A stretch of DNA of 64,000 nt from Bugula neritina (lineage: Eukaryota; Animalia; Bryozoa), in assembly GCA_964035545.1 (NCBI GenBank), contig OZ037765.1, positions 4,722,698 to 4,786,697 of the forward strand, written 5' to 3'. Positions within the stretch are counted from its first letter, which is position 1, and the number at the start of each line of letters is the position of its first letter. The notes beneath the pieces are model-generated. The model searched no databases. It saw only the letters and a program-made list of their open reading frames with translations, and had not been told where the DNA came from. The translations under genes and the position numbers were made by a program. Shown piece after piece: positions 2,334 to 55,058 of the stretch.

Positions 2334-3908
2334 TTACACTTCCTCGGTAGAAGGCAAGACCACTTGAATCATGTGACCTTTAGGTACCTTTGTGTCTTCA
2401 ATTTTAAGTTTATCCTGAAGGACTTTGCCACCATAGAACCAGCGCTGTACGCCGTCGATATTCTCAACTTTAGCTAAAGTCTGTTTAATCTGCTTGATTG
2501 TGTGTTTGCTGCGAACTGTCAATTTCAGGTCTTTGCCGCTAGACAACCGAAGTTTAATAATCACTTCCTCCCCGGGATCTTCTTCGGCGCCGTCTGCTAG
2601 ATTGTCGTCTTCTGAATCCTCGCGGAGAAGATTTGACGGATGACTCAACACGTAGACAGGAAGTTGGTATCTGTTTCCCAGTTCATCGTAGCAGTCTGTG
2701 AGATACCCTTCACAAGCATACATACAATTTATCAAATAACTGCATTAAAACCTGTTGAACATGCTTGGACCAGCTGTGAAGTTTAATCTAATAAACCTTC
2801 AAACAATGAATTGCAATTTACAAATTTAAAGTTCACGAGTACTTGGATATACATGCTGTTTATCATGACCGACGACCTACCTCGTGGCAATGTAATACTG
2901 GCACCAGATAAAATAGCTTGAGCCAAATCAAAGTCTCTTGATTCACATGCATAGGCTGCAGCCTTCAGGGCGTCCCAAATCTCCTTTCTCCCGTCAAACG
3001 CTGGTGCCGTGTCCCAGAATTCATCTCTCTTGCTAGCAAGCTGACCAATAGTGATGGGATTTTCACTTTTCCACCGAGGCATCTCGTGTTTTAAAGGCTG
3101 ATTTTTACCAGTTGCTGGAATCATTTAGTGTAAACATATTTTACCAAATATTGGCATTAGAAGGAAAATAGATAAGATAAGCAAAATTGCTTACATCATA
3201 GCATAAATACTTCAACGATATTAATAAACCAGCTACAATCTAAAGTTATGACTATTACTAATACTATTAATAATATGAGAATATTATACGAGTACATGAG
3301 AATATTATACGAGTACATGAGATTATTATACAAGTACATGAGATTATTATACGAGTACATGAGAATATTATACGAGTACATGAGATTATTATACGAGTAC
3401 ATGAGATTATTATACAAGTACATGAGATTATTATACGAGTACATGAGATTATTATACGAGTACATGAGAATATTATACGAGTACATGAGAATATTATACG
3501 AGTACATGAGATTATTATACAAGTACATGAGATTATTATACGAGTACATGAGAATATTATACGAGTACATGAGATTATTATACAAGTACATGAGATTATT
3601 ATACGAGTACATGAGAATATTATACGAGTACATGAGATTATTATACGAGTATATGAGAGCCTTATACCTGTTCATGAGAATATTAGACGAGTACATGAGA
3701 ATATTATACCTGTTTACGATGATACTACACATCAGAAAAATCTCAAGAAGACATTACTACACAATAAATACTACATTATAATGTCTTGGGTGAGTAAAAG
3801 AGCCTTACTAGAGTGTGAATGTTGTGCATTGGACCTTCTGCCGCCCCGACTTGATGGACGGCTATTCAGCTCCTCGCCATCAGTCTCGGCAGACATACAC
3901 GAACCCAT
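2334..3908 (-). CDS. UBTD: Ubiquitin domain-containing protein 1/2-like; coding exons 3809-3908, 2881-3114, 2334-2707
   Basis: MGSCMS myristoylation-type start; [25 protein letters not shown] and [14 protein letters not shown] motifs; C-terminal ubiquitin-like domain; GT-AG junctions with matching phases. Confidence 0.92.
3273..3712. repeat. 21-bp minisatellite (ATGAGAATATTATACGAGTAC)n, ~20 copies, in a UBTD intron
   Basis: Directly visible tandem units with AATA/ATTA and GAG/AAG variants. Confidence 0.97.
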
Positions 3909-11800: not shown

Positions 11801-14800
11801 ATTTGGATATGATAAGAGACCTTCTGTCCAGCAGTGTAGGCAATGTATATTCTCACAAAGTGTCAGCTTTGGATACGGTCATCGAGCACATGAAACACTC
11901 GGAGGAGGCAGTGTGTGAGTCAGCGTTACGCTGCCTTGCTGAACTGGCAGATGCTGCCGGCAGCAAACTAGATGAAGTCAGTCAACCATTGTTAGACATG
12001 GCCACCAATTCTGAGTCTACTGCTATAAGGTAATTTGTACTGTCAGTGTGGTACTGGTGGTAGTACTAGTAGCAGTAGTACTAGTACTAGTAGTAGCGGT
12101 AGTAGTAGTAGTAATACTAGTGGTACTAGTGGTAGGAGTGGTAGTAGTAGTAGTAGCAGTAGTACTCATAGAAAAATTAGTTAAGGTATTAGAAGTCTTG
12201 GTAGTCATAGTAACAGCTGCAGAGTTTTCAATTATGATAGCGGCATTATTTACTAGGCATGAAACTCAGTAGTAGGAGTTGTCTTCTGCCGTCAGGTCAC
12301 CACTCTAATGTGTTTTGTATGTAGAAATACGTCCAGCCTTTGCCTAGCAGCTTTCTGTAAGCACAATGAAGAGGCCAGAGATGAAGTGGTATTTAAAGCC
12401 CTTCGCTCACGTCTCGTAGAGGTTCAGACATTGGAGTTGTCTACTCTGAATATTCTAGATGCTATAGTCGCACAATGCAGCTCTGATGTACGTCTGTATG
12501 TGCTAACACAGCTACTTATCTCCTTTGAACAGTGTCCACCAGGTAAAGTAACCTTTGTCTGCAGAAACCTTTGTTTCCAGTATTTATAATTGAAGCTAAA
12601 TGTCGAAACTACTCAACAAATCAAAGTAATATATTGTTTTGGAATTCATCGAAAGCTATTATTTGCATGAGGTTGTTGGTAACTGAGTGACCATGATAGT
12701 TTTTTTGTATAAATGCGTGAATAGGGTAAATATTTACTTGCAAAATACTGAGGTATTGTCCACTAGCAGGCTTTCTGTATTTTTCCTTGTTGAACAAGAA
12801 ATTATTTCAAATAAAAGGTGGTTTTTACTTTCAGTTTTGTTTGTTGAATTATTTGACGATATTTTCAGATGAATACTAAACCCTGTAAGCTTCAATGCTA
12901 GTTCATTTCTATGATTTCTGTTGTTTCATTTCTTTTTTTTGTGTGTGGAAGGAACCCCCACCGATCACTAGAAATGAAATATAGCTTTTGTTTTGGTCCA
13001 ATATGAATTAAATTTTGCATTAGAATTGCAATTTGCTACTTCAATTTATAAAGCATTTATGAAATTAGAGTTGTCTTCCTTTGTTGTAGATAATAATGTC
13101 CTCACGGATGGAATACTTTCTAGCATACTCTGTGCTTTGTCCTCTCCACTTAAATTAGACTCGAGCATCTTAACGTCATTCATGCAGACGTGTTTTGAAA
13201 TAAAATTGCCAGAAATTGCAGACTCTACTAGAATGCTGATGAGTGACATCATCATGCAGATTGTAAACTTCACTGACAAAAGGTAGATCAGGGCAAACAA
13301 TAACGTTGGCTAAACTAATATGTTGATGTAGCCAAAAGATCTAAACTGCATGTGTTTGAACCTGTGGCTATAAAACAGAAATATTCATACAAAAATGTAA
13401 ATTGTTTAGCAATATTTATTGCAGGCATCTATAATATCAGTTGCTAATTTATAGGAGTTGCAACTTTAACAACTTAGTGCGTCAGCTTCATCATAAATAT
13501 TTAAGTTCTGATTCTGTTTGTAGTTATCTGCCCTCCATAGCCGAGTCAGCTTTGACAGCGTTGAATACTCTTCCGTATAATGTGACAGCTTTACAGTCGG
13601 TGCTGTGTTCTCTACCTCATGGGGTATGTTGGTGAATCTTCAATTAGTCCACTTATCACATCCTTTATAGCTTACAATACAGCGAGTCACCTAAGTTCTG
13701 AAATTTTGCCAGTTATATTCCTTATATAAAATATGAAATCAACGTATGTGGACGGAATGTTACACATTGTGTGTTTGACCAGGTACTGGATGATACTCAG
13801 CTGTTAGATGTTTTCCAACCGCTAACTTCTCAGTCACCATCACCTCTCATGCGGCTGTCAGCGTGTAAAATCTGTGCATCAGTCATTAATAAAAGCACTA
13901 AAAGTAAGTCACTCAGTCTCTGGACACACTCATCTACAAAAACCCATTTACCTATAACACGGGCTTTTCAATGATAAGAGGGAGTAACTCCTCAATGTGT
14001 TTTCTCATTGTCTAAAATTTCACTCTTCTATTTTTATTAATTGTTTAAATTTTAAAATTGAGATGTCAAAAGTTATTTTATGAGAGTTATCTCTCTACAA
14101 AGTACACTTTTATTAAACCTTATAATGCACTCTCTGATTGTAGCTGAAAACCTGTTGAAAGATATTCTTTCAGTATTCGACTCCCCCACAGTTAATACCT
14201 TACCATTATGTTTTTGGACTACCAAAGCCTTAGTTCTTAGAAATCACCATCTATCACAGGGATGCGTGTCTAAGGTAGGCCGTACCAGCATTGAACCTAG
14301 CAGTTGTTCTGGGTATTAGCTATCTGGGCTACTTAGTAGTTACTACAGTTTTACAACTGTTTAAGAAAGAAAGCATGCAACCTCTTGTACGTTGAATACA
14401 ACTGCACTGATTTAAACTATAGAGCCGAAAATTTATCTGCAATTTGTCTTCTCTTGTTTTTCTTGTCGAAGTTTCAAACTTACAAACTTATATTACACTA
14501 TCACTACTTATATTACACTATCACTACTTATATTACACTATCACTACTTATATTACACTACCACTGCTTATATTACACTATCACTACTTATATTACACTA
14601 TCACTACTTATATTACACTATCACTACTTATATTACACTATCACTACTTATATTACACTACCACTACTTATATTACACTATTACTACTTATATTACACTA
14701 TCACTACTTATATTACACTATCACTACTTATATTACACTACCACTACTTATATTACACTATTACTACTTATATTACACTATCACTACTTATATTACACTA

Positions 14801-17800
14801 TCACTACTTATATTACACTATCACTACTTATATTACACTATCACTGCTTATATTATACTATCACTACTTATATTACACTACCACTGCTTATATTACACTA
14901 TCACTACTTATATTACACTATCACTACTTATATTACACTATCACTACTTATATTACACTATCACTGCTTATATTATACTATCACTACTTATATTACACTA
15001 CCACTGCTTATATTACACTATCACTACTTATATTACACTATCACTACTTATATTACACTATCACTACCTATATTACACTATCACTACTTATATTACACTA
15101 TCACTACTTATATTACACTACCACTACTTATATTACACTATCACTACTTATATTACACTATCACTACTTATATTACACTATCACTACTTATATTACACTA
15201 TCACTACTTATATTACACTATCACTACCTATATTACACTATCACTACTTATATTACACTATCACTGCTTATATTACACTATCACTACTTATATTACACTA
15301 TCACTGCTTATATTACACTATCACTGCTTATATTACACTATCACTACTTATATTACACTATCACTACTTATATTACACTATCACTACTTATATTACACTA
15401 TCACTACTTATATTACACTATCACTGCTTATATTACACTATCACTACTTATATTACACTATCACTACTTATATTACACTATCACTACTCACTTATATTAC
15501 ACAGGTGGTGAGCTGGCTAAGAAATCCTATGCTATCAGCTGATGTAGCTCGAGGATTTGAAGTTATACTGAAAGATTACAGGGATGTATTGAGCAGTAAA
15601 CAACATCCCAACATTAGGTTGATGTATAAACAAAGGCTATTTATGTTGGTGTTTCCTGTCCTTCATGAGATGTCCTCCTCCATTGAACAGGGTAAATAAG
15701 TTGCTGTATCTTTGAATACAAAAAGCTTAGTGGTTGAATTAATTATTGTTGAAGTCACTAGAAAGGTAAAGAACAGTTTTGGTCGCTGAGATAGTCAAAG
15801 TAGTATGCAAAGATTAGCTGGTTTTCTCCTGCAACTAAGATCAGATGCATTTAATCATGGGAAAGCAGGGAAAACAGAAACGCTTTGTATTGTGGCTGAA
15901 TTGCAGTGAGCACAGAGTATGGAGAGCTGATGTTAGTCTGTATGATCAGAGACCATTTATATGAGACATTGTTATACTCTTTGCTAATTTGTAGAGCTGG
16001 TAGCTAATGTACACATAGCAGTGACGAACTTAATCAAATATATACCTAAACAAGTGGCATCTACAGAAAAGCAAAAGGTATGCCATAACTATTCCACAGT
16101 GTAAAGTGTATCCTGGGGTTGTATACAGGGTGTTTGTGGTGGCATGTTTGTTAAGCCAGAGTAGAAATATTGTGAAGAAGTTGAAAGATTATGCTGTCAA
16201 GAAATTAACAACAAAGCAGCCAATAAAACTGGGTTAAAGTACAGATACTACGAACTTATTTACTTTGCTGCTAATAATAAATACCAATTTGTTGAACCCT
16301 TCTGGACCAAAATCATGTGCTAAATTAAACTGAGGAAGTTTGAAATAACTTTTTGTTATAATCTATAAAAGCGAGCATTACTTCCCTTACTATATTTGTA
16401 GTCCGAACTAGGGTTAAAGGTTAAGTTTAATTCTACTTTCAACATGCTTATAAAAGTAGTTCTCCTTTGCTAATTTTAACTGTTCATCCAAATGTTGAAG
16501 TTGTATGCCCTCTTCAGAGTCCAATTGTGATCTAATAAAATAGTATCTGTATTCAAAGAGCTTCAACTTTGACTGTAGTTACTATGATGTGTAACACATA
16601 ACTTTATGTTTAAACAGCTGATGACGCTGTTAGTGAAACTACTCCAGTCTGAAGACATCGAGGTGCTACAACAAACTCTACAGTTGATAGATGCTGACTC
16701 CGACAGCGGTCTATTAGAGCAGCATGTGGATACTCTACTGCCAATCCTAATTAGACTGAGCATTTGCTCCCCTAGCATGGTAGGTATATACTGCAATATG
16801 CTCCCCTAGCATGGTAGGTATATACTGCAATATGCTCTTCTAGCATGGTAGGTATAGACTGCTATATGCTCCCCTAGTATGGTAGGTATAGACTGCTATA
16901 TGCCCCTTTAGTGTAGTAGGTATAGACTGTTATATGCTCCTCTAGTATGGTAGGTATAAACTGCTATATGCTCCTCTAGTATGGTAAATATAGACTGCTA
17001 TATGCTCCCCTAGCATGGTAGGTATAGACTGTTATATGCTCCCCTAGCATGGCAGGTATAGACTGTTAGATGCTCCTCTAGTATGGTAGGTATAGACTGC
17101 TATATACCCCTCTAGTATGGTAGGTATAGACTGTTAGATGCTCCTCTAGCATGGTAGGTATAGACTGCTATATGCTCCTCTAGTATAGTAGGTATAGACT
17201 GCCATATGCTCCTCTAGTATGGTAGGTATAAATAGACTTGTGTAAAACACTAACAGATACATAAAATGCAGAAATTGACCCACTAATGATTTTTGTTTGC
17301 TATTTTTGAAATAGAAATAACAAGTTACTAAAATTACTCAATGAATTGCTAGCTTTATTTAATAAAACCATACGATTTGTAACTGACTCATCTTTCAAAC
17401 AAGTTCTTCGTTTCTCAACATACCTGCATACTATTACTATCCACTGCTACTAACTAACTGTGTTTGCAGCAAGTACGCATCTCCTCCCTGAAGTGTCTAG
17501 CCACCATGTCTAAACTGACCACCCTCCTCATCGTACCTCACATGAACTCCGTCATCAAGCAACTCCTTCCTGCCCTTGATGATAAGAAACGTCTAGTCAG
17601 AAAAGAAGCTGTCAAAACTAGAAATATTTGGTAAGATTTTATCATTACACTCTCCTATTTCCTCACTTCGTCATCAACTTAATGTTTTCATTAATATTAA
17701 GGTGCAGTAGGTTCATTTCTTGTTGGTCGCCTTGTGCCCTTTTTTAAAATGCACAAATGTGGATATTGTTGTTATATAAAAGACACTTTAAGCTGAATTC

Positions 17801-18589: not shown

Positions 18590-19145
18590 CAAAATGATGC
18601 ATCATAAGCCTTCTCCACGTTCCCGGTTTTCTGTTTCCTTTAACTTCCATCTCATGCATTCTGCTGATACCATCTTCTTTCTTTCTTCTACATATAAGTC
18701 GGAAGTCCGAACCACTGCAGCCTTCTTTTCATCAGTTCTAACACATTCATTACTTTCACTTCTTGCCTTATGCTTTTATTGGTCTTGTGTTCTTCGAGAG
18801 TAATTCCTAGGCAGTAACACGGCATTCTCATCTCCTACACTAGCTTTTTTCGAAAGGTAATCGGTCACTGGTCATGTTTCAGCTTTGTACAGTAGCACCT
18901 GTCGTATCACTGTCTTGTAAATGAGCACCTTTAGTTTCTTTGGAACTTTCTGGTCACATAAAATATCGGTCAGCTCCCTCCATTTATCCCAGGCTCTACC
19001 AATGCGCACTTGTACTTCTGTCCTGCATCCTCCCTCCTGGTGGATTGTAGTTCTCAGGTATTTGAATGTGACTTTTTGAGGCAAAGTGGCATGTGCAGAG
19101 CTTTCATATTCCTTTAATTTGATGTCATCACTGTCTTCTTTTGGT
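18590..19145 (-). mobile_element. Degraded RTE-like LINE ORF2 3' fragment; shorter copies at ~45466-45735, 49111-49378, 52290-52565, 55163-55345
   Basis: FKYL..IHQEGGCRTEVQVRIGRAWDKWRELTDILCDQKVPKKLKVLIYKTVIRQVLLYKAET resembles the post-RT region of RTE LINEs. Confidence 0.75.
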
Positions 19146-19286
19146 GATAGGTGTAATGTTTGTTGTTTGTTGTACGTTTGCGTGGGTAATAATAAAGATG
19201 AGACCATTGAAATAATGTATCGTGACGTAAGGTATAAAGTGTACAGTTTGACAGCATAGAAAGAACTTCTTCTCATCATAATTGTG

Positions 19287-19327
<41 letters not shown>

Positions 19328-19330
<3 letters not shown>

Positions 19331-19800
19331 AGTTTTCAGAACTACTAGTTGTGGGTATGCTTGTGTGTTATCAATTATTGCATCACGCTGTGAGGTTATG
19401 CAATGAACTGAGCTAGTGAGAAAATATATTTAAAAAATAAGATACAAGTAGAAAAGAATGTACATCAGTTGATAAAATGAACAAAAGTTACAATGTTACA
19501 TCAGTTAACCTGTTTGTTACTAGCGTAGTCCTCGTGTGTCAGTGGGCGCCAGAAGGTGCTGCATATACATGGGAGGTTGGCCCTGATTGGTCAACCTATA
19601 TTCCACTTCTTATTGGTTATATCATTTGGCGGACATTTATATCCTGTTGCCCCATATTAGCCTGCGGCGCCTGCCGCATGTGGAACAGCACGACTAGCCA
19701 AAAAACTATCGCATATGTTTGGCATATGTTCAGTGTAGAATCAGTCTACCACTGGAGCTCATTCTACTTACAATAAAGATTCTACTAAGACAACACTACA
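19328..19800 (+). mobile_element. Possible solo LTR
   Basis: TGTAGT...ACTACA termini with AATAAA ~25 nt before the 3' end; no target-site duplication found. Confidence 0.35.
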
Positions 19801-22846: not shown

Positions 22847-25800
22847 ATGTCGTTTGTTGGAAAATCCCTTAGCGAACCTACTCATACTGATAGTGATACT
22901 CATACTCATACTGATAGTGATACTCATCCTCATAGCCAGGAAGATTTTTTGGAATTGGAAGTTCTAAAAGTAAAACTTAAAGGTAAGCGTGAGGCTCCGA
23001 CTGAGTCTGAGTGAGAGCTAAACAGTAAATGCCAAATAAGTGTTTAATGTTGTTATATTGAGTACTGGGGGTTTTCAACTACTAAGTACCTAATATAACA
23101 CAGGGTATGCATACAATTAGAATATTCTACATGTGTATAACTATAACGCGTTGATAGTTGGTATCACACTTACCGGTATTATTCTTCTCTTCAGTCACAT
23201 CTGCTTACGACGGACTCTAGTGTACAAGAGATCTGGAATCCTGTACCAAAGCTGCCACGTTTAGACAGAAGGTTCTCTCATTGCTTACTTCTTGTAGCCA
23301 GAGCTCCGTCACTCAACATAAAAGGTAAGGGTACGAAAGTGATAAGTATCTTATAGCTAAAGAGCAAAGTGCTATAATCCTTAGGCTAGAAGTCCTGTTG
23401 CGAAACATCATATATGTGGAAGTATACTTTTAGGGCTAATGTTGTACCATCTCCAATAATTAGTTGTATGTCCTGTATCATGGTGTATAACCTTGTAAGT
23501 GTGTGTCTATTTAATGTTACTGCTATTCTATATAGTAGGCATACACTATGTATGGAAGAAAAGATATATTATAAATGGGGAAAAGATAGAATACATGGAA
23601 GTATTCAATACAAAACAATATTAAGCTCTAACTAAGGTTGCAGGGAAGCAGGATGCTATATCTGTAGTATATTATATTGTAGTGGTATAGCATACAAAAT
23701 GTCAAGTATGAAATAATACTTGAATACATCTATAGCATCCTCCCCAATTTAGAGAAAGACACCTCCGGTGGCTTATGCTTGTTGAAAGCATAAACAATTA
23801 AGCATTACTACTCCGAAATAAAAAAGGAAGAAAAACCTTTCACAATAAAATGAGTAAAATTTGAAAATTATATATACTAGCTGTTATATAGGCCTATATG
23901 TATTCTATTAGTACCAGTGAGTTCATCGATTAGAGTGAGTATTTTTTTTTTATTTCTGGTCACATAATCTTTTTTTTTTTCTCACTCATTTTTTTACATT
24001 GTTCCCTTTTTTTGTAACCATATTTTCATTATTTTTTTTTGATGAACTATATCTGTTGATGAAATAAAAAAAAAAACAAGACTTTAGCTATAAGTAAACA
24101 TTTACTAAAAATACACTAATTATGAATATTATAAACATAAGTCACAGGAGGTGGTGATAACAATCGACTCCGCATTTTATCCAACTTTGAATATTTAAAA
24201 ATTTCGCTTGATTTGATTCAATTTTCCCAATACAGAGCTTACTTAATTTTATTTTAATCAAAAGTCAATTTGATTTCTGCAATTTTTAGTAAGTTTGTTT
24301 TATGAGAAGCCAAAACTGTAGAAGATGTTAACCTGTAATGCTAAAAAAATGTCAAAGTACTCCCCCCTGTGAACAACAGGAAAACTCCTGTGTTCCATTG
24401 AAAAACTTGATTATTAATATGGCAGTAAATATTAGTATATCTGGTATATCTGCATGGTTATGTAAAGTAATGAATCGGGTGTCAATATGGTTATTATGTA
24501 TGTAAGTGTGAAGTAGATAAGCTACTCAATGCTGCTACTAGTACTGGGTATGTCGGCTTCTAGTCATTGCAGTTTCGGATAGAGGGGGCGATATTGCTGA
24601 ATTGAGGATGCAGGCGAAGGAGCACTAGGTGTTGGTCTAGTGTCCACTTCTACCATATCTACGAATTCTGTGAAGCTAGTCTGATCGGAAGCGTCCAGGA
24701 ACCCATCCTGTTCTCCTGCCTCAACATCATTGTCAGATGTGTCCTCTGTGTCCTCAATGTCGATAGCTGCTACAATATTTCTCCTTCGCTGGCAACAACG
24801 ATTGTATAGAAAAATACCTAGCAATGCAATTGACAATATGGTGACTAAACAGTTGGATATCAAAGTCCACAATTCAAACGCACTCGCCACATGCCCTCCA
24901 AACAGGAAAGCAAACCAAGAGTTCCCTATCAAGTTCTCTTTCGACTCAATGACATTGTTTTTAAAGGAAACATGTCTGTTGGATTGAATTCCCATCGCTT
25001 CTAGAACTTGTTTCTGTCTTGACAAAGTAGCTAGCAATTCATTCAAGTCAGAGTGTGCTGACAGGTCAGGCCAACTTAGGTGATGGGCACGGCTGTAGAT
25101 TGTTTCATGGATTTTAAGAGGGTGTGCACCTAGAGAAATTCCAGGTAAACTCAGGTCTTCTCCAAGATTAACCTTTTCTACGGTACCATCTTGGTTGTAC
25201 CAAAACAATTCATCGTTCATCCGGAATGCAATTGCTGGTTTGGATGTGCACGGTGCTTGTGCACTTTGTGTGTGAATAATGTTATCCATTGGATCCATGA
25301 AACCAGTGTGCGTTTCCCCACTGAGTTCCAATTCTACTGGAATAAACATGGTGCAATTATTCTCTGACATAGGGAGCATTTTGTAGCTTTTTATTTCCGT
25401 ACATGGGTAAATCTTTAGAAAACCAGGACCAGACTCAGCTCGGATATTGCTTACCCCTAGTAAGTATCTGGCTGTACTCGTCGCATGTTGCTCTGCGAGT
25501 AGAGCTACGGTTTTGAGGACTTGAACTATGTTTTTACAGGTATATTGATAAGATGTCCAATACAGTTTTGATTCGATTCCGAGAATCTGTACTTCTAGGG
25601 ACTGAGCTATAGCGTCCATGACAGCATATGCTGGACTCAAACGACTCCTGCGGTCCCATTCTAGTCCAGGAGCCTTTTCAACGTGTTGCGTTAGAGTGGT
25701 GTTGAACAGGTCTGAAGTATTAAAAACAACAAGCAAACCTTGGTCCGACATTGTGCCTGACTTGCCGTCACAAGTGGTAATATTCTCAAAGGGGTTCTTG

Positions 25801-28800
25801 CGGAAAGTTAAAGCCAAGTCTTCTTGATCACTAACAAAATAGCCATCAAGGAAACTTCCTTCAACTTCATACCACTCCTCGTATGGACAATTAGCTTCTC
25901 GTTCTGTTTCCCATATTAGCATAGATTGATCTCTGAGTTTGCAGTAGCCATCAGAGTATGAGTTGCAATGGGAAACGTCACCTGCGGTGCTTTCAAAAGA
26001 ACTTTTCCCAAATGTCTTGTATACCGAAGCTGAAATATAACTGCATTGTTTCACTTCAAAGTGATGCCACTTGCAGCACCAAACATAAGCTAATCCTGCA
26101 GCTTTGTTTTTTGTAGTGTATGCACCATCACTTCCAGATAGGGCACCTTCATTGCATCTCTTCTCTAGTACCATATTTTCGCATTCGCTGCGGCTAACTG
26201 GCAGTGACCGGTGATATTCCTTCTTAGTTTTCACGTCCGTAAAAAGTGATATCTGTGTGGAGATGGTGTACAGCATTTTAGTGCATTGATAGGCTGCTGT
26301 ACGCCATTCCACTACATTTTTTCTGTAAACCGTAGCCTTCACAGGGGTTGGCGCATGAGTACTATTGGGTCTTGGAGTCGGATCACATTGGAAGTCATGA
26401 TTCAATTGATGAATAGATGGTCGCCTCACTTCACTGGAACTACACACCAAAGGATACCTGGCATACTGCGGCTGTGCCTTCTGTGTAGTGTTAAAAACAG
26501 TCGTGTTAGACAATGCATTCACTACTGCTGTCAACACTAACACAGATAGTATGCTGGTGAGAGTCTGACTGGCCACAGCTGGCCCCAGGAGAGCTGTGCC
26601 TTTTACTGGTGCAGTGGCTGCGGCTACACTGATCAGCATACACATTGCCACTAGTGCCAACATGTAGGTTTGCATTGTTGACAAACCAGTCCCCCGTCCT
26701 CTGCTTCTTTTTCTTTTGGGTTTCCTGTCAGAGATGAATTCATTTGGAGAGGTTTGAATTGAATTCACTGATTCCTCAGCTATGTCCTCTTGAGGAGGCT
26801 GAGTCAGAAGGGCCTCGGCAAATTCATCACCCTCTAGGCTCTCAATAGCATTGATGTGTCGCGTCCCACTGTAATCTTTGGTTTTGCTCTGTTGACCAGA
26901 GCACTGATTACGTTGTGGTTGCTGGTGAGAGGGTGGTTGAGGTGGGCAGGAAGGAAGTTGTGCTGGTGGGTGAGGGTACCGGGGAGAAGATTGGTAGTAG
27001 GGTTGAGGCTTCCCCTGGTTGAAGTATCTACCTCGTCCTCTTCCTCGGTTTGTTGTTCCTCTCCATCCACCACCTCTACCTCTGTCATTTCTCATTCCAA
27101 ACCCTTGACTCTGTTGTTGGTGTTGTTGGTATTGGGGCTGCCGTTGCTCTTTAGCTTGGTTGTGCACTAAAGTTTTCAACCATTCTACCTCTTTTTCTAG
27201 CTTTTGAACTGAGTCAGATGAGTTTACCGTTGCCACTATTCTCTGGGTGTCATCTCCCATCTGATGTTCTACATTTTCTTGCTTAAGTGCAAGTTTCCTA
27301 GCACTTTCTACAGTTGTGGGGTTTTTAGAGAGGAGGTGCCTCTTCAATCCTGGTCGTAGACCAGTAATAAAAGCAGATACTAGCACGCTATCTTTATGTT
27401 CAAGGGAGAGGTCAGGCCATTGGGTGTTGGCAGCTTCCATAAATTCGCCATAATATTCTAGTACGCTTTTCTTCCCCATCTTTATGTTCCACACTAATTT
27501 GCTTGAGTCGACAAACTCTTTGCATAACCTCTCTCGAAGACTCTTGTAACTAATCGCTAGCGTGGGCTCCTTTGCAACTACTGCCTTGAAAACCTGATAG
27601 GCACCACCTTCCAGGGCATCTGGAAGGTTTTGTGCCATCTGATAATCACTAAGCTGCAGTTTTTTTATGTTCTTTTCCCATTTTTCAAGAAATAACTCCC
27701 AGCTGGAACCAGGAGTTCCTTTAAATTTGATGTTCTGTGGAGGCTCTCTCAGAATAATAGGTGAGTTGTGAAATTTTCCCGCATCAGCTACTCCAATGCT
27801 GTGTTCAGATGGTGTTTCAGCTAAGCTTTGGATTGGTGAGTTATGAGGTTTTGGTGATCGTTGATTAGCAATGTGGGGATAACTTGATGTGAATTCCAAG
27901 GTAGTATTTGTAGGTGTAGGTGCTGGTTGTTCATGAAGTTGTCTTCTACTTGTTTTTCGTGGCGTAACTGGTGGAGGTAGGCGAGTTCGAGGCGGCGGAG
28001 TTGGTTCCGGCATGACATTTGCATCATTGGTAGATCTTTGACCCAAGGTGAGATTCCGAAAATCTTCGAGTTGTTGTTGTAACTTTTGTTGCTGGATTGT
28101 GAGCCGATGCTCTCTTTCCAGGAACTCATTTTGCTGTTGTTCTTGAACAGCGCTCTGTTCCTCATAGAACTTTCTCCGTTGGATTTCAAAACTTTCCTCC
28201 ATCTCGTACCGTCTCCTTGCTTGCTCTTGTCTTTCTACCTCGAGGTGCTGAAACTGTTCCGCCAGTTCATGCTCCTTCGTTTGTTGATACTGTCGCCATT
28301 GTTCTTGCTCATATCTCCATACATCTTTTTGCTTTTCCTGCTCCTCTACAAGTTTCTTGTATTCTAACTCGTAGAACTTTGCAATTTCATGCGGGTTCAT
28401 TGGGAGTCGTCTTTCGGACAACTCAACCAATGCGTGAGCTCCTTCTCTTGTCGAATCTTGTGAGAGAGTAGGAGTGTCTAAGCCCGTGGCTACATTTGTG
28501 GCACTACCTGGTGTCGTAATAGTACTAACACTAGTGGTGACTGTAGTTGTGGCGGTGGTCACGGTTCCGGTACTCATATTGTTGGTGCGTGACTTATAAT
28601 TTCCGACTAATAAGTGAGTTCAGCAGTACTTGTTTGCAATGTTATTAATGTTTATACTTTGTGCTAATGTACAATTATGTGTCTATTTCTTACTCAAGGA
28701 TATGTGTGCATGTACTATCCTGTATATATGACAAGGTGTGGCTTGCAGTTAAATACTTTAAGTTAGTGGAAGTCTTTTATTATGACCTCTGTACACTACA

Positions 28801-31800
28801 AATTATTCAGTTATTTCTGCTATTCAAGCCTAGTCTAAAATCTAAATTTAGTCAACCACAGTAATTAATTAGTTTGATATTCGTACTATGTAGTAAGGCG
28901 GTTGTTGTACTTAGGTACTATAATACGTAATAGGACAATGCTTTGTACTATAATACACTGACTGCACTGCAGGTGTCGCAATACTTAGTACTGCAATGTA
29001 ATATTCGTATAATGTGTAAATATATAATATACAATTCAGTGATGCTCTGATTGGCAATGCACTGCAAAGTAAATTGTAGGTAATTATAAGAAATTATGTT
29101 TAGGACAAGACTATTAATTATAGTACTTGTCAGCGCCTATACCTCAGCAGACAGTCGTAGACTGAATCTGTTTGGAATTTATTAACTGCTAAATAAGGAG
29201 CGTGTTAACCTTATCTGCAGCTCACCCAATTATACAACTAAATTAGCCTATTAGCAAAGGGAGGTAATTCACTTCTACAATTAATTATCTCTAAGCTAAA
29301 AAAAATTAAAACTGGCTTGTTTTCACCTTTTAAGCAGCAGAGAAAAATTAAACATATAGGAATTCTCGCTCTATTACTATTAGTCTATGGATGTATATTG
29401 TTTTGGGGTAATATGTAAAAGTTGATCCTTTTTGGCTTCAATTAATATTTTCTCAGTGCGGCCTAGCACTTCTACGGTCTACCCACGAGCAAAATATGAG
29501 CTCAGCGAATATAAAACCTACAGGAAAATATTAGTGAACAGCCAAATGAGGCCTGATCAACACTATCTAAAGTATTAATATAATTTTATCCCCTGGCGCA
29601 CGGGGTGGTTAACCAAGTGTCAAGAGCTATTAATATAAAGCTGGACACAATATTTAACAAGGGCAACCTTGGGCAAAAGCCAGTGCCTCCTCCAAAATGT
29701 TATATTGAGTACTGGGGGTTTTCAACTACTAAGTACCTAATATAACACAGGGTATGCATACAATTAGAATATTCTACATGTGTATAACTACAACGCGTTG
29801 ATAGTTGGTATCACACTTACCGGTATTATTCTTCTCTTCAGTCACATCTGCTTACGACGGACTCTAGTGTACAAGAGATCTGGAATCCTGTACCAAAGCT
29901 GCCACGTTTAGACAGAAGGTTCTCTCATTGCTTACTTCTTGTAGCCAGAGCTCCGTCACTCAACATAAAAGGTAAGGGTACGAAAGTGATAAGTATCTTA
30001 TAGCTAAAGAGCAAAGTGCTATAATCCTTAGGCTAGAAGTCCTGTTGCGAAACATCATATATGTGGAAGTATACTTTTAGGGCTAATGTTGTACCATCTC
30101 CAATAATTAGTTGTATGTCCTGTATCATGGTGTATAACCTTGTAAGTGTGTGTCTATTTAATGTTACTGCTATTCTATATAGTAGGCATACACTATGTAT
30201 GGAAGAAAAGATATATTATAAATGGGGAAAAGATAGAATACATGGAAGTATTCAATACAAAACAATATTAAGCTCTAACTAAGGTTGCAGGGAAGCAGGA
30301 TGCTATATCTGTAGTATATTATATTGTAGTGGTATAGCATACAAAATGTCAAGTATGAAATAATACTTGAATACATCTATAGCAATGTTAATCTCAAAAG
30401 TTAATAATATTTCAAAGTTTAGTATAAAGTAGAAATAGAATTACTATTAGAAGTAAACTTTTAGTTCTATGTTCTAACGAATAAATATTTATATAATAAA
30501 TATAATAACTCATAAATCATAAGACCTAGTCATAAGTCATAAATGATAATGATAAATATAATCGTTATCAATTTATTCTTTACTCTTTAGGCTAAGCTTT
30601 AACTTTAAGTTTATTATATTATTCATTATTATTTTGATAATCATTATGATTATAGTTATAATTTACATTATCATTATCACTTTATGCATTGTCATTGTGA
30701 TTCAAGATTTAAATCACCATCATCAATTAATATGAATAATATTATGACGATTATCAGTATCACTATGTCTTATACTTATAGTAATAGTTATAATTTATAA
30801 ATAAAAATAAAATATAAGTTAAACTTGATATTATCGTGTTTTCAATACCATTTATTAATTATCAAAGAAAAAGTGAAATTCAATATCATCAACATGAACA
30901 CTACTAGTACTACTAGTAACTGTAAGAAGCATCGTAAAGTTAACCAGAAAAATAAAGTAACATATGATAATAATGTAACTATCACTATGACCAATAAATA
31001 TTATATTTTATTTTGTTACAATTATTAATATTACTAATAGTAATAGTATTGGTATGGCACTTCAACTCATAAAATCACTACTGGATACAATGATTGCTGT
31101 AAAATTAAATTTATTATGGTTATTAATATTAGTATTACTATAACACTAAATATTACATGACTAAGTATATGACTACTACTAGTACTAGGTATAAGTATTA
31201 TCGCTACACTATGAGGATGTATATCAAACTGCTGCTTTTAATATTAGTATTACTTATACTATTGGTAATAATAGTATTGGTATGATTTGCAGCATGGGTA
31301 TCCTGCATTATTTTTAGATATGGCATTTCCATTTTTAATGCATAATGCGTATAGTATCAGTATGTTTGCATTTTCACAGATGTTGAAGAGAGCACCAATC
31401 ATGTTCTTGGCCTAGTAGAATCTCTTGGGTAAGAATTTTTTTATAATCTTTTAATAATATTTTAAAATTTCATACTTTTTTTATTAATATTGTCATAACT
31501 TGTAAATAAAGATATTACTGGTAACATAAATACTGTTGTTAACCTATTTATTTCAAGCTCAAACCTTATTTAATTATTTATTTGCAGCCCTTCCCTGACA
31601 TCATTAGATACAGAAACTCGTGCAAGTGCTACACAATTATTGGCTGACGATATAAGCAATTCGAAAGGGTTGAGGCGGAACGACCTTGAACCATTAGCAG
31701 ATTTCTTCTGTGACAGAATCAAAGATCATCACTCTATTGTTCCACATGTTCTTACAGCATTCTCTACCCTGGTAACATAATGTTATAATTAGCATATCTT

Positions 31801-39506: not shown

Positions 39507-40330
39507 ATGTGCTTTTCAAGACAAGAAAAGCCGCCTGAACTTCATGACAACATACTTAAAGTTTTACAACAAGACTTTGAAACGGAAAACACAAGCCTTT
39601 CTATAGATGATAGAAAGTTAGAGAACGAAATCCACAAGAATGAAGCTGGATTTATAGCTTTGCCACTCCCATTGAAAACACTTCTACAATCTGCTAAATC
39701 ATCTAGAGCAGTTGCACTTCACCGGTTCAGCGAGTACAGGAAACAGTATACTGGTTTTATGATAAGTATCATTGACAGAGGTGAAGCAGAGCTTATACCA
39801 CAATTAGAAAAGGGAGAAGGATGATATTTACCTAACTTCATCCTAAAAAGCCTAACAAGATTAGAGTCGTTTTTGAGGCAAGTGCTAAAGCTAATGGCAT
39901 ATACCTCAAGGACCATCTACTTGAAGGACCAGCACATATGAACAGTTTGCATTAAAAAACTATATTATGTTATGTTATTATGGAATAATATTATATTTCA
40001 CAATTTTTATGTTGAACCGAAAAGCCATAGAAACTACCTTAAGTTTTTCTGGTTTTCTGAAGGGAAAGTAGTAGAATATCAAATGAGAGTGCAATTATCT
40101 CCAGCATGGGTTAAGACATCTTGCTGCTACTAGTGGAAACAATGATGTCCAAAGATTCATTCACAACATTTTTTATATCGACAATGGTTTTGTGGGTGTA
40201 AGTGGTGCAAAATTAGCCCAGCAGCTTATTCAGGAAGCAGTGAAAACTTGTAGCTGTGGTGGACTTCGACTTCACGAGTGTGTTTCTAACAGTTCAGAAG
40301 CTCTACAACAATTACCAGAATCTGAAAACT
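39507..40330 (+). mobile_element. Degraded BEL/Pao retrotransposon pol fragment
   Basis: LPLPLK..ALHRF..Y..FM..IIDRGEAE, then YLP..PKKPNKIRVVF and DHLLEGP in shifted frames. Confidence 0.75.
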
Positions 40331-43300
40331 ATCAATTTGGTGCGATTTGTTCATGTTTTTTTATGTTTATTCATGCAGGCAGACTGCTGTAAAGTATTCA
40401 ACTCTGAACACCTTAGACCTTTTACCAATATTATGACACAGCAATTGTTACGGGAAGCCATGCTCTCAAGTAGAACTGAGGAGCTGGCACTAGAGGCTAT
40501 CTCTGCCATCTGCAGCTGTTTAGCCAAACCGGTAGGTAATTGTTGGGACATGAGCTTGGAAAGCTTGTTGAATAATTACAGCTTTACTTGTATTATTACA
40601 GCTATGTTAGCTACATTATGGTTTTTTTTTCTATTGGGATGCAATGATTTTGGCTACTGCAAAATAGCTATCTTTTTAAACTGTTATGAAAGCTATTCAT
40701 TCTCTTTTCTTTCAGTCTGCGATAATAAACATACATCTATATATTGAAACACAGCAGTAATCATAAAAATATTCTTATGATTTAATTTTTTTCATCAAGC
40801 AGTCACTGAATTTTCGTTGCATTATTTAAATTGATGCTTATATGGTTGTGGTTTCTAAAAACGAGAGAAAAATTAGAAGCTTGGAAACGTAGCGATTAAA
40901 AGATATATCTTTATTCTCAGTCTTTAGTCCGCCATTTTTAAACTTTCTTAGACTTGAAACTTGCAACATATAAGGAGTTATAATATACAGTAAAATGTAG
41001 CTGCAGGTTAATGTACATTATGCTTTTCTCTATTGTGATACAATGATTCTCGCTACTGCAAAATAGCTGACTTTGTAGAACGTATAAAACTCATCACTTT
41101 TCATTATTCATTCTCTTTTCTTTCAGTCTGTGGTAATGAGCATACATCTATATATTAAAACACAGCAGTAATATGAAAATAGTTTTATGTTTTACCTTCT
41201 TCATCAAGTAGTGACTGCATTTTCGTTGCATATTATGCAAATTGATGCTTATATGGTTGTGGTTTCTAACAAGCTTGGAAACATAGCGATTAAAAGATAT
41301 ATCTGCATTCTCAGTTGAGTTTTATGATGGTAAGTCTGTCGTGTGCTATTTTTAAATTTTCTTAGACTTGAAACTAGTGAAATAAAAGTTAGTCTTGGAA
41401 AGAAATTATGTTTGATTTACTGCTCACAAAATTTATTTGCGTGTTGTAAGGTAGACGTTAAATTGTTTCAAATTTCCTTGTTGTGACTACTAAGTTGTTG
41501 AACCTGTTTTGTTGGATCCTCTCTGTTATGTTACAGATTGATGGAGTCACTGTGTACACAGATGTTGATGACTTCTGTACATCATAAGAGATCTTTTGTC
41601 CAGCAGTGTAGGCAATGTATATTCTCACAAAGTGTCAGCTTTGGATACGGTCATCGAGCATATGAGACACTCCAAGGAGGCAGTGTGTGAGTCAGCGTTA
41701 CGCTGCCTTGCTGAACTGGCAGATGCTGCCGGCAGCAAACTATATGAAGTCACGCAGCCATTGTTAGACATGGCCACCAATTCTGAGTCTACTGCTCTAA
41801 GGTAATTTGTACTGTCAGTGTGGTACTGATGATAGTACTGGTAGCAGTAGTACTAGTGGTAGGAGTAATAGTGGTAGTGGTAGTAGTAGTAATACTAGTG
41901 GTAGTAGTAGTTGTGGTGGTAGTCATAGTAATAGTAATAGCGGTAGTGGTAGTAGCGGAAGCAACAGCAGTACTAGCAGCAGTAGTAATAATAGTAGTAC
42001 TAGCAGTAAAATTAGTTAAGGTAGTAGAAGTCTTATTAGTCATAGGACCAGCTGCAGAATTTTAATTCATGATAGCGGCATCATTTACTAGGCATGAAAC
42101 TCAGTAGTAGGAGTTGTCTTCTGCCGCCAGGTCACTACTCTAATGTGTTTTGTATGTAGAAATACGTCCAGCCTTTGCCTAGCTGCTCTCTGTAAGCACA
42201 ATGAAGAGGCCAGAGATGAAGTGATATATAAAGCCCTTCGCTCACCTCTCGTAGAGGTTCATACATTGGAGTTGTCTACTCTGAATATTCTAGATGCTAT
42301 AGTCGCACAATGCAGCTCTGATGTACGTCTGTATGTGCTAACGCAGCTACACATCTCCTTTGAACAGTGTCCACCAGGTAAAATCTTGTTTTACCTCATT
42401 TGTTTTCTCCTGCAACTAAATTAAACTGAGGAAGCTTAAAATAACTTTTTGTTATAATCAACAAAACTGAGTGTTACTTCCCTCACTATATTTGTAGTCC
42501 TCTAGGGTTAAAGGATAAGTTCAATTCTACTTTCAACATGCTTATAAAAGTAGTTCTCCTTTGCTAATTTTAACTGTTCATCCAAATGTTGAAGTTGTAT
42601 GCCCTCTTCAGAGTTCAATTGTAAATGAATAATATTTAACTGTTCAATTTAATAAAACCATACAGTTTGTAACTGATTCATCTTTCAAATAAGTTCTTCG
42701 TTTTTCAACATACCTGCTGTGTAGTTGTTGTGAGCTATTGGTATGAAATACTGATAACTACAGGTTATATTGGTAAGCATACTCATCATTCTATTACTGT
42801 CCACTGCTACTAACTAACTGTTTGCAGCAAGTACGCATCTCCTCACTGAAGTGTCTAGCCACCATGTCTAAACTGACCACCCTCCTCATCGTACCTCACA
42901 TGAACTCTGTCATCAAGCAACTCCTTCCTGCCCTTGATGATAAGAAACGTCTAGTCAGAAAAGAAGCTGTCAAAACTAGAAATATTTGGTAAGATTTTAT
43001 CATTACACTCTCCTATTTCCCCACTTCGTCATCAACTTAATGTTTTCATTAATATTGAGGTGCAGTAGGTTCATTTCTTGTTGGTCGCCTTGTGCTCTTT
43101 TTTAAAATGCACAAATATGGATATTGTTGTTATATAAAAGACACTTTAAGCTGAATTTACCAAACTGTATGTGGGTGTGTAGTGTAATAAACTATTTTCA
43201 CGTTTCCAAGTATCTAAAAATCTAGGTCTATTTCAATATTAACAATCAATTTATTCCATGTTTGTTACTTTAGTAGTTGTGTGTTTTCAATTCTAGGTGC

Positions 43301-43345
43301 ATGGTTAGAGATGGAAATGAATCTCACTGAAGAGAATTTTTCTAA
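40330..43345 (+). pseudogene. MMS19 copy 3, internally deleted: exon 8, exon 9 fused into exon 11, exon 12, then exons 20-21
   Basis: Highly similar to copy 1 including introns; no 5' exons; deletion junctions at ~41584 and ~42380-42420. Confidence 0.88.
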
Positions 43346-43637
43346 TTGTTACCAAATTAATACTTTGGGTGAACAAATGTACTGACTTTGGTAAAGTAAA
43401 AACTCATAAACGGCATGGCTACCTCCAAACAGAAGCAACTACTGCTTCCAGTAAAATTACGTTACCACTAATAAACCCTAAAATTGCTTCACCCACTTGA
43501 TCTGTGCCTAATTTATTTATAATTATGACATTATCTTGGGCCTAAAATTTTTTGAAAACACATTCACAAGTATAAAACATTAGAACAAAGTTTTCCAATT
43601 ACTATTTTAGAAAACGAAGTGTCGGAAATGTTGAGTA

Positions 43638-45355
43638 CCGTAAAATGGGGTAACATTGGCCGTTTTGAGACAAATTTTGGGTGTCATATGAAAGGATTAC
43701 AATATTCTTTAAAATTTTTGGATGCTAAATGAAGCTTATCAACATATGCACTAAATGAAAGAACCTTTTGCAGTTTGGGACTGCTAGATCTCCTGTGGTA
43801 TTAAAAAAAGTAGGTGGCCAAAGTTACCCTATTTTCGGGGTAACTTTGGCCGGTGTCGTTATTCTCCATGTAGCTAAAGTTAGCAGCACTTGGAGCTTTT
43901 TTAGCCAGTTAGAAATTAAAGAACAACATTATTCAACTTCATTACTACAAAAAAAAATTATTTTAGACAAAATGCAAGCTATAATAGTGTAATTATTGCA
44001 TTGAAACCACAGCTATTCGACGTACATTGTTATTAAGTGTAAAAACTTTTGTATATGTATAAAAAATCAGGTATTTTGCTGGCAACATTGAATAAATCAC
44101 TGTACAAGTTCAAATTTCATTGAATTTAATTTTAAATTCAAGTATGCCCTTTCAAACTATAGGCTGTAACAGTTGTCTGTAGATTTTTTAAATAATGCGT
44201 AATGTCTTCAGAATTAACTGTTGCCCATTCCGGTGCTATGTTTTGGCACAACCTGTGAGACAAGCTATCTTTATGTCTTGACATAAAACTGAGACTCCAG
44301 TGATCTTGAGGGTAGTTGCTTTTGAAATGTTGCACTCTTCTCTCACATTTGTCAAAATAGGTCTTGACTATTATTCGAAAGTCTGTTTTATCTAATGGAA
44401 AGCCCCATTGAGCCAGCTTTGTAGTAGGTATGGTCAACAATGGCTACCTCCTCTACTTGTGAAAACACAGTTTGGCGTCCAGGCTTCAGCTTGTGTCTTC
44501 ATGCGGCTCTGTTTTGTAGTGTTCCTTTAGTAATATCATATTTCTAGCCACTTCTTGTCAAGACTTTCCAGCTGCCAATTCTTGTGAATAAAGCAAAACC
44601 AATGATCTCCTCAGATATGCCATATCTTGGAGATATTACTTTTCTTTAATATTTTCTGAGTATAATTGTCTTGAAAAATACATTTTACAATGCATGGTCA
44701 AATTCTTAAATAAAAAAAAACATTAAACACAAAATTGCTGTCTGGGAACAAAAATGTATAATTCCCCATGTAATTATTTCATATTTCGGACTCTAAGTTG
44801 TTTCAAATATATAACTAGAGCATTGGGTATAGGTGAATCAAATGATTGTGCCTTTAGAGAGTAATGTACTATGTGTCTGAAGGAACAGAAAATTCGCAGC
44901 GCTGCCAGAAACCTACTTTGGAGTACCATTTAGTCATGGCCAAAGTTACCCCAAATTCGTCAAAAATTGTACACAGTGAATTCAAGACACATATTTTAAT
45001 TTTGAATTTCAATTTATTTACCTAAATTACAAATATCCTGGTTAAATACTTACCAAAGTTCTTTAATACAAAAAAGAAAATGAGTCCAGCTTTTCTAATG
45101 CCTTCAAATAAATTAAAGTTGGACAGCGCTGAAAATCTTGTTGTCAAACAGGAAATTGAAAATGGCTGACAGCAAGAAGCAGCAAATAAGTATATGAATT
45201 ATTTTTCAGGAATAGGATGCACCAATCTGCAGTCAGTGCATATATACAATTAAAATATCTTTAGACTTCATAGATATAGCACCAGCTACATTTTAAACAT
45301 TTTTTCCAAAGTGGCCAAAGTTACCCCAAGTGGCTAAAGTTACCCCATTTTACGG
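43638..45355 (-). mobile_element. Non-autonomous pogo-like (Tc1/mariner superfamily) DNA transposon
   Basis: TIR CCGTAAAATGGGGTAAC at both ends, TA TSD, repeated subterminal GGCCAAAGTTACCC motifs, CENP-B-type HTH remnant (WGFPL..W...FMSRH) at 44138-44440, no DDE domain. Confidence 0.88.
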
Positions 45356-45735
45356 TAGTTAAAACTTTTTATTAGCAAAACTGAATTTTCAGCTATAAAA
45401 CTTTTTAATCAAAATTCTGAGGCTCTACACTCATAAAATAAAAATTATGATACTAAAAGAAAGCGAAAGTCTGAACCTCTGCAGCCTTCTTTTCATCAGT
45501 TCTAACACATTCATTACTTTCACTTCTTGCCCTATGCTTTTATTATTTTTGTGTTCTTCGAGAGTAATTCCTAGGCAGTAACACGGCATTCTCATCTCCC
45601 ACACTAGCTTTTTTCGCAAGGTAATCAGTCACTGGCCATGTTTCAGCTTTGTACAGTAGCACCGGTCGTATCACTGTCTTGTAAATGAGCACCTTTTGTT
45701 TTTTTGGGACATTCTGGTCACATAAACATCACTGT

Positions 45736-52248: not shown

Positions 52249-54049
52249 GCTCTACACTCATAAAATAAAAATTATGATGCTAAAAGAAATCGGAAGTCCG
52301 AACCTCTGCAGCTTTCTTTTCATCAGTTCTAACACATTCATTACTTTCACTTCTTGCCTTATGCTTTTATTGGTCTTGTGTTCTTCGAGAGTGGTAATTC
52401 CTAGGCAGTCACACGGCATTCTCATCTCCTACACTAGCTTTTTTCGCCAGGTAATCGGTCACTGGCCATGTTTCTGCTCTGTACAGTAGCACCGGTCGTA
52501 TCATTGTCTTGTAAATGAGCACCTTTTGTTTTTTTGGGACATTCTGGTCACATAAACATCACTGTCTATGCCAATGCTTTTGTTTTCACAATGCCTTGAT
52601 GTGACTTGTGTATTTTTTGCAAAATTTCTGTTTGTTTTGACCTTGATATTATCAGCTTTGAACCAGCAAATAGAAATTCATCACAAATTCCAATTATATT
52701 ACACCATGGCCAATATTTTCTTCGAGCAAAACTACAAGATTTTTCATCTGGACGCCATCTATTAATTACCATCAGTTTGAGTGCCTGTAATTCTCTGTCT
52801 CTTAAAACTGCTTGTTTGTATTCTGCTTTAGCTCTATCAGAACAAAATATGACTTCAGGCAAGTTTTTCATAGGAAGAAATTCAGCAACATTTACAAATG
52901 TCCCTACATTGGGTTAGGATGCTTTACTTAACATATCTTTGTTCACCCTTCAACTGGTTATAACAGTCTTGAGAAAGAAAAATACCAGAAATATCGAGGA
53001 CTTCTACGTCATTTAAATTTTCTTCGATAGTGCCCAACCATGAATCATAGTAGCACTGGTCGTATTACTGTCTTGTAAATGAGCACCTTTTGTTTTTTTG
53101 GGACATTCTGGTCACATAAACATCACTGTCTATGCTTTTGTTTTCACAATGCCTTGATGTGACTTGTGTACTTTTTTCAAAATTTTTGTTTGTTTTGACA
53201 TTGGTACTGTCAGCTTTGAACCAGCAAATAGAAATTCATCACAAATTCTAATTTCATTACGCCATGGCCAATATTTTCTCCGAGCAAAACTACATATCTT
53301 TGTTCACCTGCCTGGGATCTAAACTAAGTCCTATTTGATTGTTAGGCTTTTTGTCATTACAGCGGGCAAACCCAAACCTGCAGGTTCATTGCATTTTTGA
53401 ATAACTTCTAACTTTTCAAGCTCACCCAAGCTCTGTTTTTAGCTTTAGTTTCACATTTATGGGAACAGGCCCACTACTGCCAACTACTGGCTTAGCCTCA
53501 GATCTTAAGAATTTTTCAAATTTTCAAAATTTTCAAACCGAACTGAAAAATTGCATGAAAAAAATTTAACATTGCTACATAATCCTACATTAAACATGCA
53601 GGGTCCCTCATTAACATCTGTAGTAGCATCTGGTACTTGTACAGTGTTAGTTGTAGATTTCGTTATAGCTTTAGATCTACATACCTTAGCAAAGTGACTA
53701 AATTTACCGCATTTGTTACAGGATTTTCCATACGCTGAGCAGTGTCTCCTGCTGTGACTAGACCCGCAGCTATGGCAGTTGTTCAAAATATCCATTGTAT
53801 GCTTTTTTGGCAGAAAATCTTTTGGAGTAATTTTTTTCTTTATCGCATCTACATTTGCTGGTTGCTCTGGTGCAGCACTCGCAAGGTTTCTCTGTATTAT
53901 CTCTTTGGCTCTCTTGCGTCAACTGCTCTTCTGTCAGTTGCTGTAGCTCAATTGACAGAGCCTTGTTTTTATCCCTGTCAGCAATCTATATTTAATGTTA
54001 TCATTTACCACATTGCCAAATTCGCAATGTTGTGCTGAAGAGGGTTTCT

Positions 54050-55052: not shown

Positions 55053-55058
55053 TAGGTA
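55053..55058. other. Transposon excision footprint TA-GG-TA
   Basis: Same site is TA at 49001 and TA-[element ending ...CGG]-TA at 43636-45357. Confidence 0.75.

Follow-up and report, generated by a model that had tools for sequence, protein, structure and literature searches.

The window, by which we mean the whole 64,000-nt stretch of Bugula neritina DNA that was analysed, contains a 7334-bp element bounded by long terminal repeats (LTRs) and read on the minus strand, and the genome surrounding it is AT-rich and rich in repeats. The two LTRs, of 687 bp each, show one mismatch, and the element is a young, recent insertion. Its terminal features are as follows:

left 23047..23050 and right 30385-30388, strandless: 4-bp target-site duplication ATGT
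29698..30384, minus strand: 5′ LTR, 687 bp, identical to the 3′ LTR at 686 of 687 bases
29680..29694, minus strand: likely primer-binding site, starting with TGG 3 nt past the 5′ LTR (from sequence and inference)
23738..23745, minus strand: polypurine tract adjoining the 3′ LTR
23051..23737, minus strand: 3′ LTR, 687 bp, pairing with the 5′ LTR

The LTRs, the target-site duplication, the primer-binding site, the polypurine tract and the Gag capsid domain are hallmarks of Ty3/gypsy elements, and the element is placed as Ty3/gypsy-type because its Env and gene order match the errantiviruses described in the available text of PMC13524379. Troyka was considered as a match and rejected, as it encodes no envelope according to the part of PMC12440569 at hand, and the viral_contigs collection yielded no relative of the element. 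The read depth in sequencing run X1 was ~570-630 within the element versus ~120 on its flanks, a difference that is not readable as copy number, and reads of runs presumed to be RNA also cover the element, which is no proof of its expression.

The element carries a single long reading frame, in which Gag is followed by Env without interruption. Its parts are the following:

24564..28577, minus strand: Gag-Env open reading frame (ORF), 1337 aa, uninterrupted (from the ORF and its translation)
27258..27764, minus strand: capsid region, residues ~272-440, with the Pfam domain Retrotrans_gag (PF03732) at residues 321-409
26616..26675, minus strand: predicted internal signal peptide, residues 635-654 (from hydropathy, with a basic n-region upstream and an A-x-A end)
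26508..26576, minus strand: second hydrophobic segment, residues 668-690 (from hydropathy and alignment)
24873..26501, minus strand: Env ectodomain, class III, herpes gB-like / Monjiviricetes_fusion
24804..24869, minus strand: Env transmembrane (TM) helix, residues ~1237-1258 (from hydropathy, alignment and model)
24780..24800, minus strand: juxtamembrane RCCQRRR, residues 1260-1266 (from sequence and alignment)

The match of the window Gag to Retrotrans_gag lies at the curated cut-off of Pfam (E 3.7e-5), and relative L007 showed a weak match to Ty3_capsid. The capsid is followed by an NC region rich in RG and Q, in which the CCHC knuckle of most relatives is lost in the window copy; the degenerate knuckle is at positions ~26860-26950 (minus strand), and the RG-rich stretch upstream of it may bind RNA. 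Between NC and the signal peptide (positions ~26790-26850, minus strand, residues ~578-597) there is an acidic motif, E/D-x-D-E/Q-F/Y-A-x-x-L-L-T/S-Q-P, which is conserved in nearly all close relatives.

The pattern of the internal signal peptide was recognized by eye also in those relatives that span this region. The second hydrophobic segment is present only in the window copy and in P0001 among 16 aligned rows, and it could give the window copy an inverted ectodomain topology. Profile and structure-model comparisons identify Env as a class III fusogen of the herpes gB type. An Env profile of 69 sequences matched herpes gB at E 1.3e-14, and the alignment-based model of Env (pLDDT 83.7, versus 35.7 for the single-sequence model) gave top Foldseek matches that were all gB, with E 4e-20 and low TM-scores of 0.26-0.37. 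The nearest clusters in the ESM Atlas were Monjiviricetes_fusion at 0.96, which is a lead only given the low recognition score. Pfam searches gave nothing in the window Env itself, a single-sequence PDB search with it returned chance matches only, and the ectodomain contains no R-x-K/R-R furin site. On the other side of the TM helix, the CC of RCCQRRR is matched in 60-67% of the aligned relatives, and the motif is likely a palmitoylation and stop-transfer patch. The C-terminal TM helix and the basic patch precede the tail, which has zero N-glycosylation sequons; with these cues, the tail is predicted to be exposed to the cytosol.

The tail is where the motifs of main interest are located. P(T/S)AP motifs bind TSG101 and LYPxL motifs bind ALIX, and both usually reside in Gag or matrix proteins. 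The tail of the window copy contains the following motifs:

24759..24776, minus strand: IVAAID, akin to the V/I-N/A-A/S-V/I motifs found where Gag domains meet
24618..24629, minus strand: PSAP late-domain motif, TSG101 type, residues 1317-1320
24582..24593, minus strand: YRPL, a YxxΦ motif, sharing its Tyr with the PPxY of relatives
24570..24584, minus strand: LYPKL late-domain motif, ALIX type, residues 1332-1336

The original prediction was that PSAP and LYPKL end the ORF after a TM helix, a CC/RRR patch and an acidic stretch, and this is confirmed by both the coordinates and the translation. The ORF read from 28577 to 24564 on the minus strand terminates with ...PTPSAPSPASSIQQYRPLYPKLQ directly before the stop codon, and the two motifs are within its last 21 residues, behind the TM helix, RCCQRRR and the acidic stretch. 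When the 75-aa tail was shuffled 400,000 times, both motif types appeared together at a frequency of 3.25e-5, while PSAP plus LYPxL appeared together in 0 shuffles. No P(T/S)AP, PPxY or YPxL was found in the window Gag half (668 aa scanned). As for IVAAID, its residues V1269 and A1270 are each matched in 73% of the relatives, and the motif could possibly be a viral protease site at which the tail is clipped off.

The occurrence of these motifs was then compared among relatives, which included 13 close ones at 35-52% identity, and 443 matches in a wider search, 150 of which were listed. The set of 20 scored tails consisted of the query, 12 of the 13 close relatives, P0014, P0015, P0017, P0018, P0036, P0060 and the L007 ORF, selected because the pre-TM anchor motif was present and the tail complete, and picked after the sequences had been viewed. 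P0009, which ends at the TM helix, was omitted, as were fragments and near-duplicates, among which P0038, P0069 and P0131 also have motifs. The data showed P(T/S)AP in 11 of the 20 tails (0.27 expected from composition shuffles), YPxL in 15 (0.37 expected) and PPxY in eight (0.75 expected), figures that are not independent probabilities because the relatives share ancestry. The original prediction had proposed conservation in intact homologs as its check, and at least one late-domain motif was found in 19 of the 20 tails, P0017 being the one with none. After collapsing at 65% identity, 14 of the 15 remaining lineages had at least one motif (P(T/S)AP in eight, YPxL in 11 and PPxY in five); the four lineages without YPxL have PT/SAP or none, and several lineages retain PT/SAP as their only motif. 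Three chemically different motifs of one pathway substitute for each other between lineages. Six scrambled control patterns were found in 0-1 of the 20 tails.

The motifs persist in tails whose median identity is 26%. In an alignment of 15 relatives, the match to the query was 0.70 in the PSAP columns and 0.90 in the YP columns, against values of 0.22 over residues 1263-1310 and 0.44 over the ectodomain. Within the aligned YPxL the values were 0.93 for Y, 0.87 for P and 0.73 for L. A strict Leu before YP is found in only nine of the 19 YPxL tails, the rest having Ile or Val, and a YxxΦ motif overlaps YPxL in 14 of the 19. The 14 Gag halves, on the other hand, contained P(T/S)AP once, YPxL three times and PPxY once, versus ~0.5, ~1.5 and ~1.2 expected, which is near chance, and any motif was present in four of them. 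Hence, the claim that the motifs belong to the envelope tail rather than to Gag stands with respect to the Gag halves, but it has to be narrowed, since Gag and Env form one polyprotein of which the tail is the C-terminus, and therefore the tail counts as a part of Env only if the predicted internal signal peptide is cleaved. Several of the tails (P0004, P0006, P0007, P0010, P0014, P0015 and P0018) also share a C-terminal motif I/T-W/F-P-S/T-F/Y, and a similar motif, WP-P/S, is present in several distant tails.

Among distant relatives, 30 of 50 rows could be scored, while 20 with an unaligned TM or tail were dropped. Only seven of the 30 had any motif (P(T/S)AP, YPxL and PPxY in three, two and three rows, versus 0.27, 0.67 and 0.52 expected), so that the feature is limited to a clade. 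In a quick-version tree, drawn open, the motif-rich proteins were in one clade of 23 rows with an SH-aLRT of 97. On the scale of sister contigs, 34 substitutions were listed in the last 100 codons, of which two amino-acid changes were in motif codons, and both of these are in contigs that also bear an upstream stop (assigned by equal depth, from few data).

The sequence that follows the tail was examined in the window copy and in relatives from a metagenome scan, which gave 14 loci. The relevant features are the following:

24560..24569, minus strand: CAA-TGA-CTAG, stop codon in a readthrough context (from sequence; contexts as in the available text of PMC13517186)
24526..24563, minus strand: pol stub, ~12 codons like those that begin pol; beyond it pol is gone, with the break within 24526-24539
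L001:2190, L003:2149, L007:5002, L009:4195 and L010:3765: CAA-TGA-C stops of relatives, with Pol in the same frame

A long Pol frame was located behind one TGA, in frame with the tail, in 12 of the 14 loci, which represent five distinct elements; the other two loci were a frameshifted env (L012) and a fragment (L013). The order protease, RT, RNase H and integrase was seen in all five relatives' Pol scanned, although this order alone cannot separate gypsy from BEL. All eight stop contexts compared, including that of the window, read CAA-TGA-C, and they continue as CUA (window, L009, L010), CAR-YYA (L003, L007, L008) or CGC (L001, L002). UGA-CUA and CAR-YYA are included among type I/II stop-codon readthrough contexts and are established readthrough signals, as described in the accessible part of PMC13517186. 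Because the stop contexts match these signals, UGA readthrough is likely, and the single in-frame CAA-UGA-C before Pol in the relatives is likely read through, which would give a fusion of Pol with the tail of Env. In eight sequences, no RNA structure common to the 80 nt downstream of the stop was seen, with folding energies from -7 to -18 kcal/mol calculated without a shuffle control. In distant relatives no stop intervenes, and 17 of 30 have a protease motif in frame behind the tail; in the sister-lineage proteins P0020, P0022, P0067 and P0070 LYPxL directly precedes the protease start in one open frame.

The window copy itself is pol-less; neither this nor the uninterrupted Gag-Env ORF was mentioned in the original prediction. 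A tblastn search of the window with the Pol of five relatives found nothing but an unrelated integrase, at 60.6-61.6 kb, and neither UTR of the element contains pol. Contigs from runs X1, X3 and X12 diverge from the window at 24526 into sequence that by eye resembles the start of the relatives' Pol, while other contigs diverge at 24539-24540 into sequence resembling, also by eye, the end of that Pol. As contigs thus run both into and out of pol-like sequence, pol-bearing sister copies likely exist. We infer that pol was lost cleanly across a shared stretch of ~14 nt, as template switching would give.

Considered together, the sequence data make it probable that the motifs of the Env tail recruit the host ESCRT machinery for particle release. 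The internal signal peptide would thread Env into the ER while Gag remains cytosolic, and signal peptidase would separate the two, giving about a 1:1 ratio of Gag to Env. Given this predicted cut, the late domains, as well as Pol made by readthrough, would therefore stay with Env. The tail would be cytosolic and present three times per Env trimer, where it could bind TSG101 through PT/SAP and ALIX through YPxL, and in many relatives also NEDD4-type ligases through PPxY, so that ESCRT would be recruited at the bud neck, either at the plasma membrane or into multivesicular bodies. Occasional readthrough of UGA would produce Env-tail-Pol, so that Env instead of Gag would carry the enzymes into particles. 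Later, the tail may be cut off by the viral protease at the site resembling IVAAID, in the manner of p6 or the MLV R peptide. The window copy would need Pol supplied by pol-bearing sister copies. The tail, which is the end of the structural polyprotein and adjoins the recoding site, occupies the slot of HIV p6.

The most serious alternative is that the motifs are real trafficking signals, which sort or down-regulate Env through AP-2/AP-1 (via YxxΦ), NEDD4 ubiquitination and ESCRT/ALIX, with lysosomes or an assembly compartment as destinations, and that they do not serve particle scission. We regard this as unlikely, but it has to be taken seriously because of the frequent YxxΦ overlap and the low share of tails with Leu before YP. 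YPxL itself fits YxxΦ. Consequently, with the overlap described above, adaptor-mediated sorting could explain a part of the conservation, and the same motifs can send a membrane protein to endosomes. These points, and the absence of pol from the window copy, qualify the argument of the original prediction that two motifs so near the end speak for real particle release. In addition, the available text of PMC7995964 reports that cellular proteins, ENaC among them, use L-domain-like motifs for endocytosis, and that the traffic of herpes gB depends on the MVB pathway and on the gB tail. What speaks against sorting is that the Pro after Tyr, which YxxΦ does not require, is kept (by definition in the counted cases, but also in the column values), that PT/SAP stands alone in several lineages, that Gag motifs are not beyond chance, and that the position of the motifs mirrors p6.

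It has also been considered that the tail is a p6-type Gag late domain, which predates the insertion of env between NC and p6, so that budding would be of the Gag type in a new layout. The motifs would then act while Gag-Env is one chain, or once the protease frees the tail. The tail immediately precedes the recoding stop or the protease, and a protease-site-like motif follows the TM helix, both of which are consistent with such an origin. However, the motifs are absent from 23 of the 30 distant GAG-ENV-POL relatives, as expected if they were gained later, and relatives retain the pattern for signal-peptide cleavage, which makes this explanation rather improbable. Two weak searches for Gag or Gag-Pol relatives that lack env came up empty, returning only Gag-Env proteins or a 66-aa fragment. 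As this alternative is about origin and timing, it is partly compatible with ESCRT recruitment by the Env tail. Chance matches in a proline-rich, low-complexity tail, which could be imagined because disordered tails often give rise to short motifs and most distant relatives have none, are refuted to the point of being highly improbable by the joint shuffle frequency, the column conservation and the presence of motifs in nearly all lineages despite the low tail identity.

Beyond ESCRT recruitment by the Env tail as such, a single mRNA could yield Gag, Env and, through UGA readthrough, Env-tail-Pol, and the tail of the fusogen could bear the whole late-domain set and also tow Pol into the virion, so that budding, scission and packaging would all proceed via the glycoprotein. 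We put this forward tentatively, as a possibility that falls slightly short of being probable. If it is correct, these elements would be extracellular viruses that bud with ESCRT, and pol-less copies would be packaged as parasites. They would then provide a natural case of late domains relocated to a fusogen with Pol tied to Env, which would change how the particle is assembled. The interchangeable set of PT/SAP, YPxL and PPxY constitutes sequence evidence of selection to engage ESCRT in one clade.

The architecture of the element is already known, as GAG-ENV-POL errantiviruses with gB-type Env have been described from Bryozoa, Platyhelminthes and Nematoda in the available text of PMC13524379 (eLife 2026). 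Among them, the bryozoan Cpal_errantivirus_4/5/6 with an HSV/gB-type (C2b) Env have the gag-env-pol order and a Ty3/gypsy Pol, like the relatives studied here, and their rows in the supplement, which are parts of the ectodomain only, share ectodomain motifs with the window Env when compared by eye. Unlike these bryozoan elements (PMC13524379), the window copy is pol-less and keeps gag-env and the pol stub. The main text of the same paper makes no mention of late domain, ESCRT, PTAP, cytoplasmic tail, readthrough, frameshift, non-autonomous or pol-less. The late domains of the tail are a conserved feature of a known element family, and it is the assembly logic that is unusual. The 2022 study of Sacco et al. 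reportedly describes nematode gag-env-pol endogenous retroviruses with env between gag and pol, as here, and it may have described a fused ORF or readthrough already. The literature search, the coverage of which ended short of this nematode gag-env-pol study, returned no account of late domains located in the Env tail of a retroelement. The use of ESCRT by errantiviruses is called unknown in the accessible text of PMC3383448, where an EIAV-like motif in gypsy Gag is mentioned, and the release of foamy viruses is described as dependent on Env in the part of PMC7828637 at hand.

Several known systems are similar in part. Retroviral Gags provide a parallel, in that the same three interchangeable motif classes close the structural polyprotein there, next to the site of recoding into pol. 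All three classes are present in MLV. Known late domains of retroviral Gags include PTAP and YPXnL in HIV-1 p6, YPDL in EIAV p9 and PPxY in oncoretroviruses, and they are position-independent, with motif classes replacing one another (available text of PMC7995964, section 4.3). Unlike in these Gags, the motifs here are behind a fusogen ectodomain and a TM helix, and they are predicted to end on Env. In alphaviruses, flaviviruses and HCV, capsid and envelope come from one chain that is split at an internal signal peptide, a layout shared with Gag-Env, but these are RNA viruses in which the polymerase is not known to be fused behind a glycoprotein tail. Bluetongue virus NS3, which is a membrane protein, provides access to ESCRT from a non-matrix, non-Gag protein, as is proposed here, but it is neither a fusogen nor a part of a retroelement. 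This non-structural protein contains PSAP and PPxY and is an exception to the usual placement (PMC7995964, accessible part). For the GP2 tail of hartmaniviruses, which are likewise not retroelements, ESCRT access outside matrix or Gag has been proposed through a non-canonical ALG-2 motif, with budding via the glycoprotein tail being the authors' speculation in the available text of PMC6261641.

Other features were noted elsewhere in the window. A possible host gene is indicated by an exon-like ORF at 40244-40747 (plus strand), which has no Pfam match. The integrase detected in the search for pol is a broken gypsy-type one of another element (60476-61634, minus strand; rve, H2C2, SH3-like). Near this remnant there are two related ORFs (51049-52158 and 58798-59469, minus strand) that carry C2H2-like and C-x-C motifs as well as a coiled coil at the C-terminus, and for which Pfam matches were weak only. 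Tandem arrays at 3170-3814, 14326-15500 and 16694-17298 have periods of 21, 20 and 34 bp, respectively, and the long ORFs at these arrays are spurious because of the repeats. A block of 90-100% identical repeats, amounting to a few kb in all, is located at 43200-57500, with older copies near 17.4-19 kb, and an RT-like fragment was recognized by eye at 18872-19429 and at 57593-58219.
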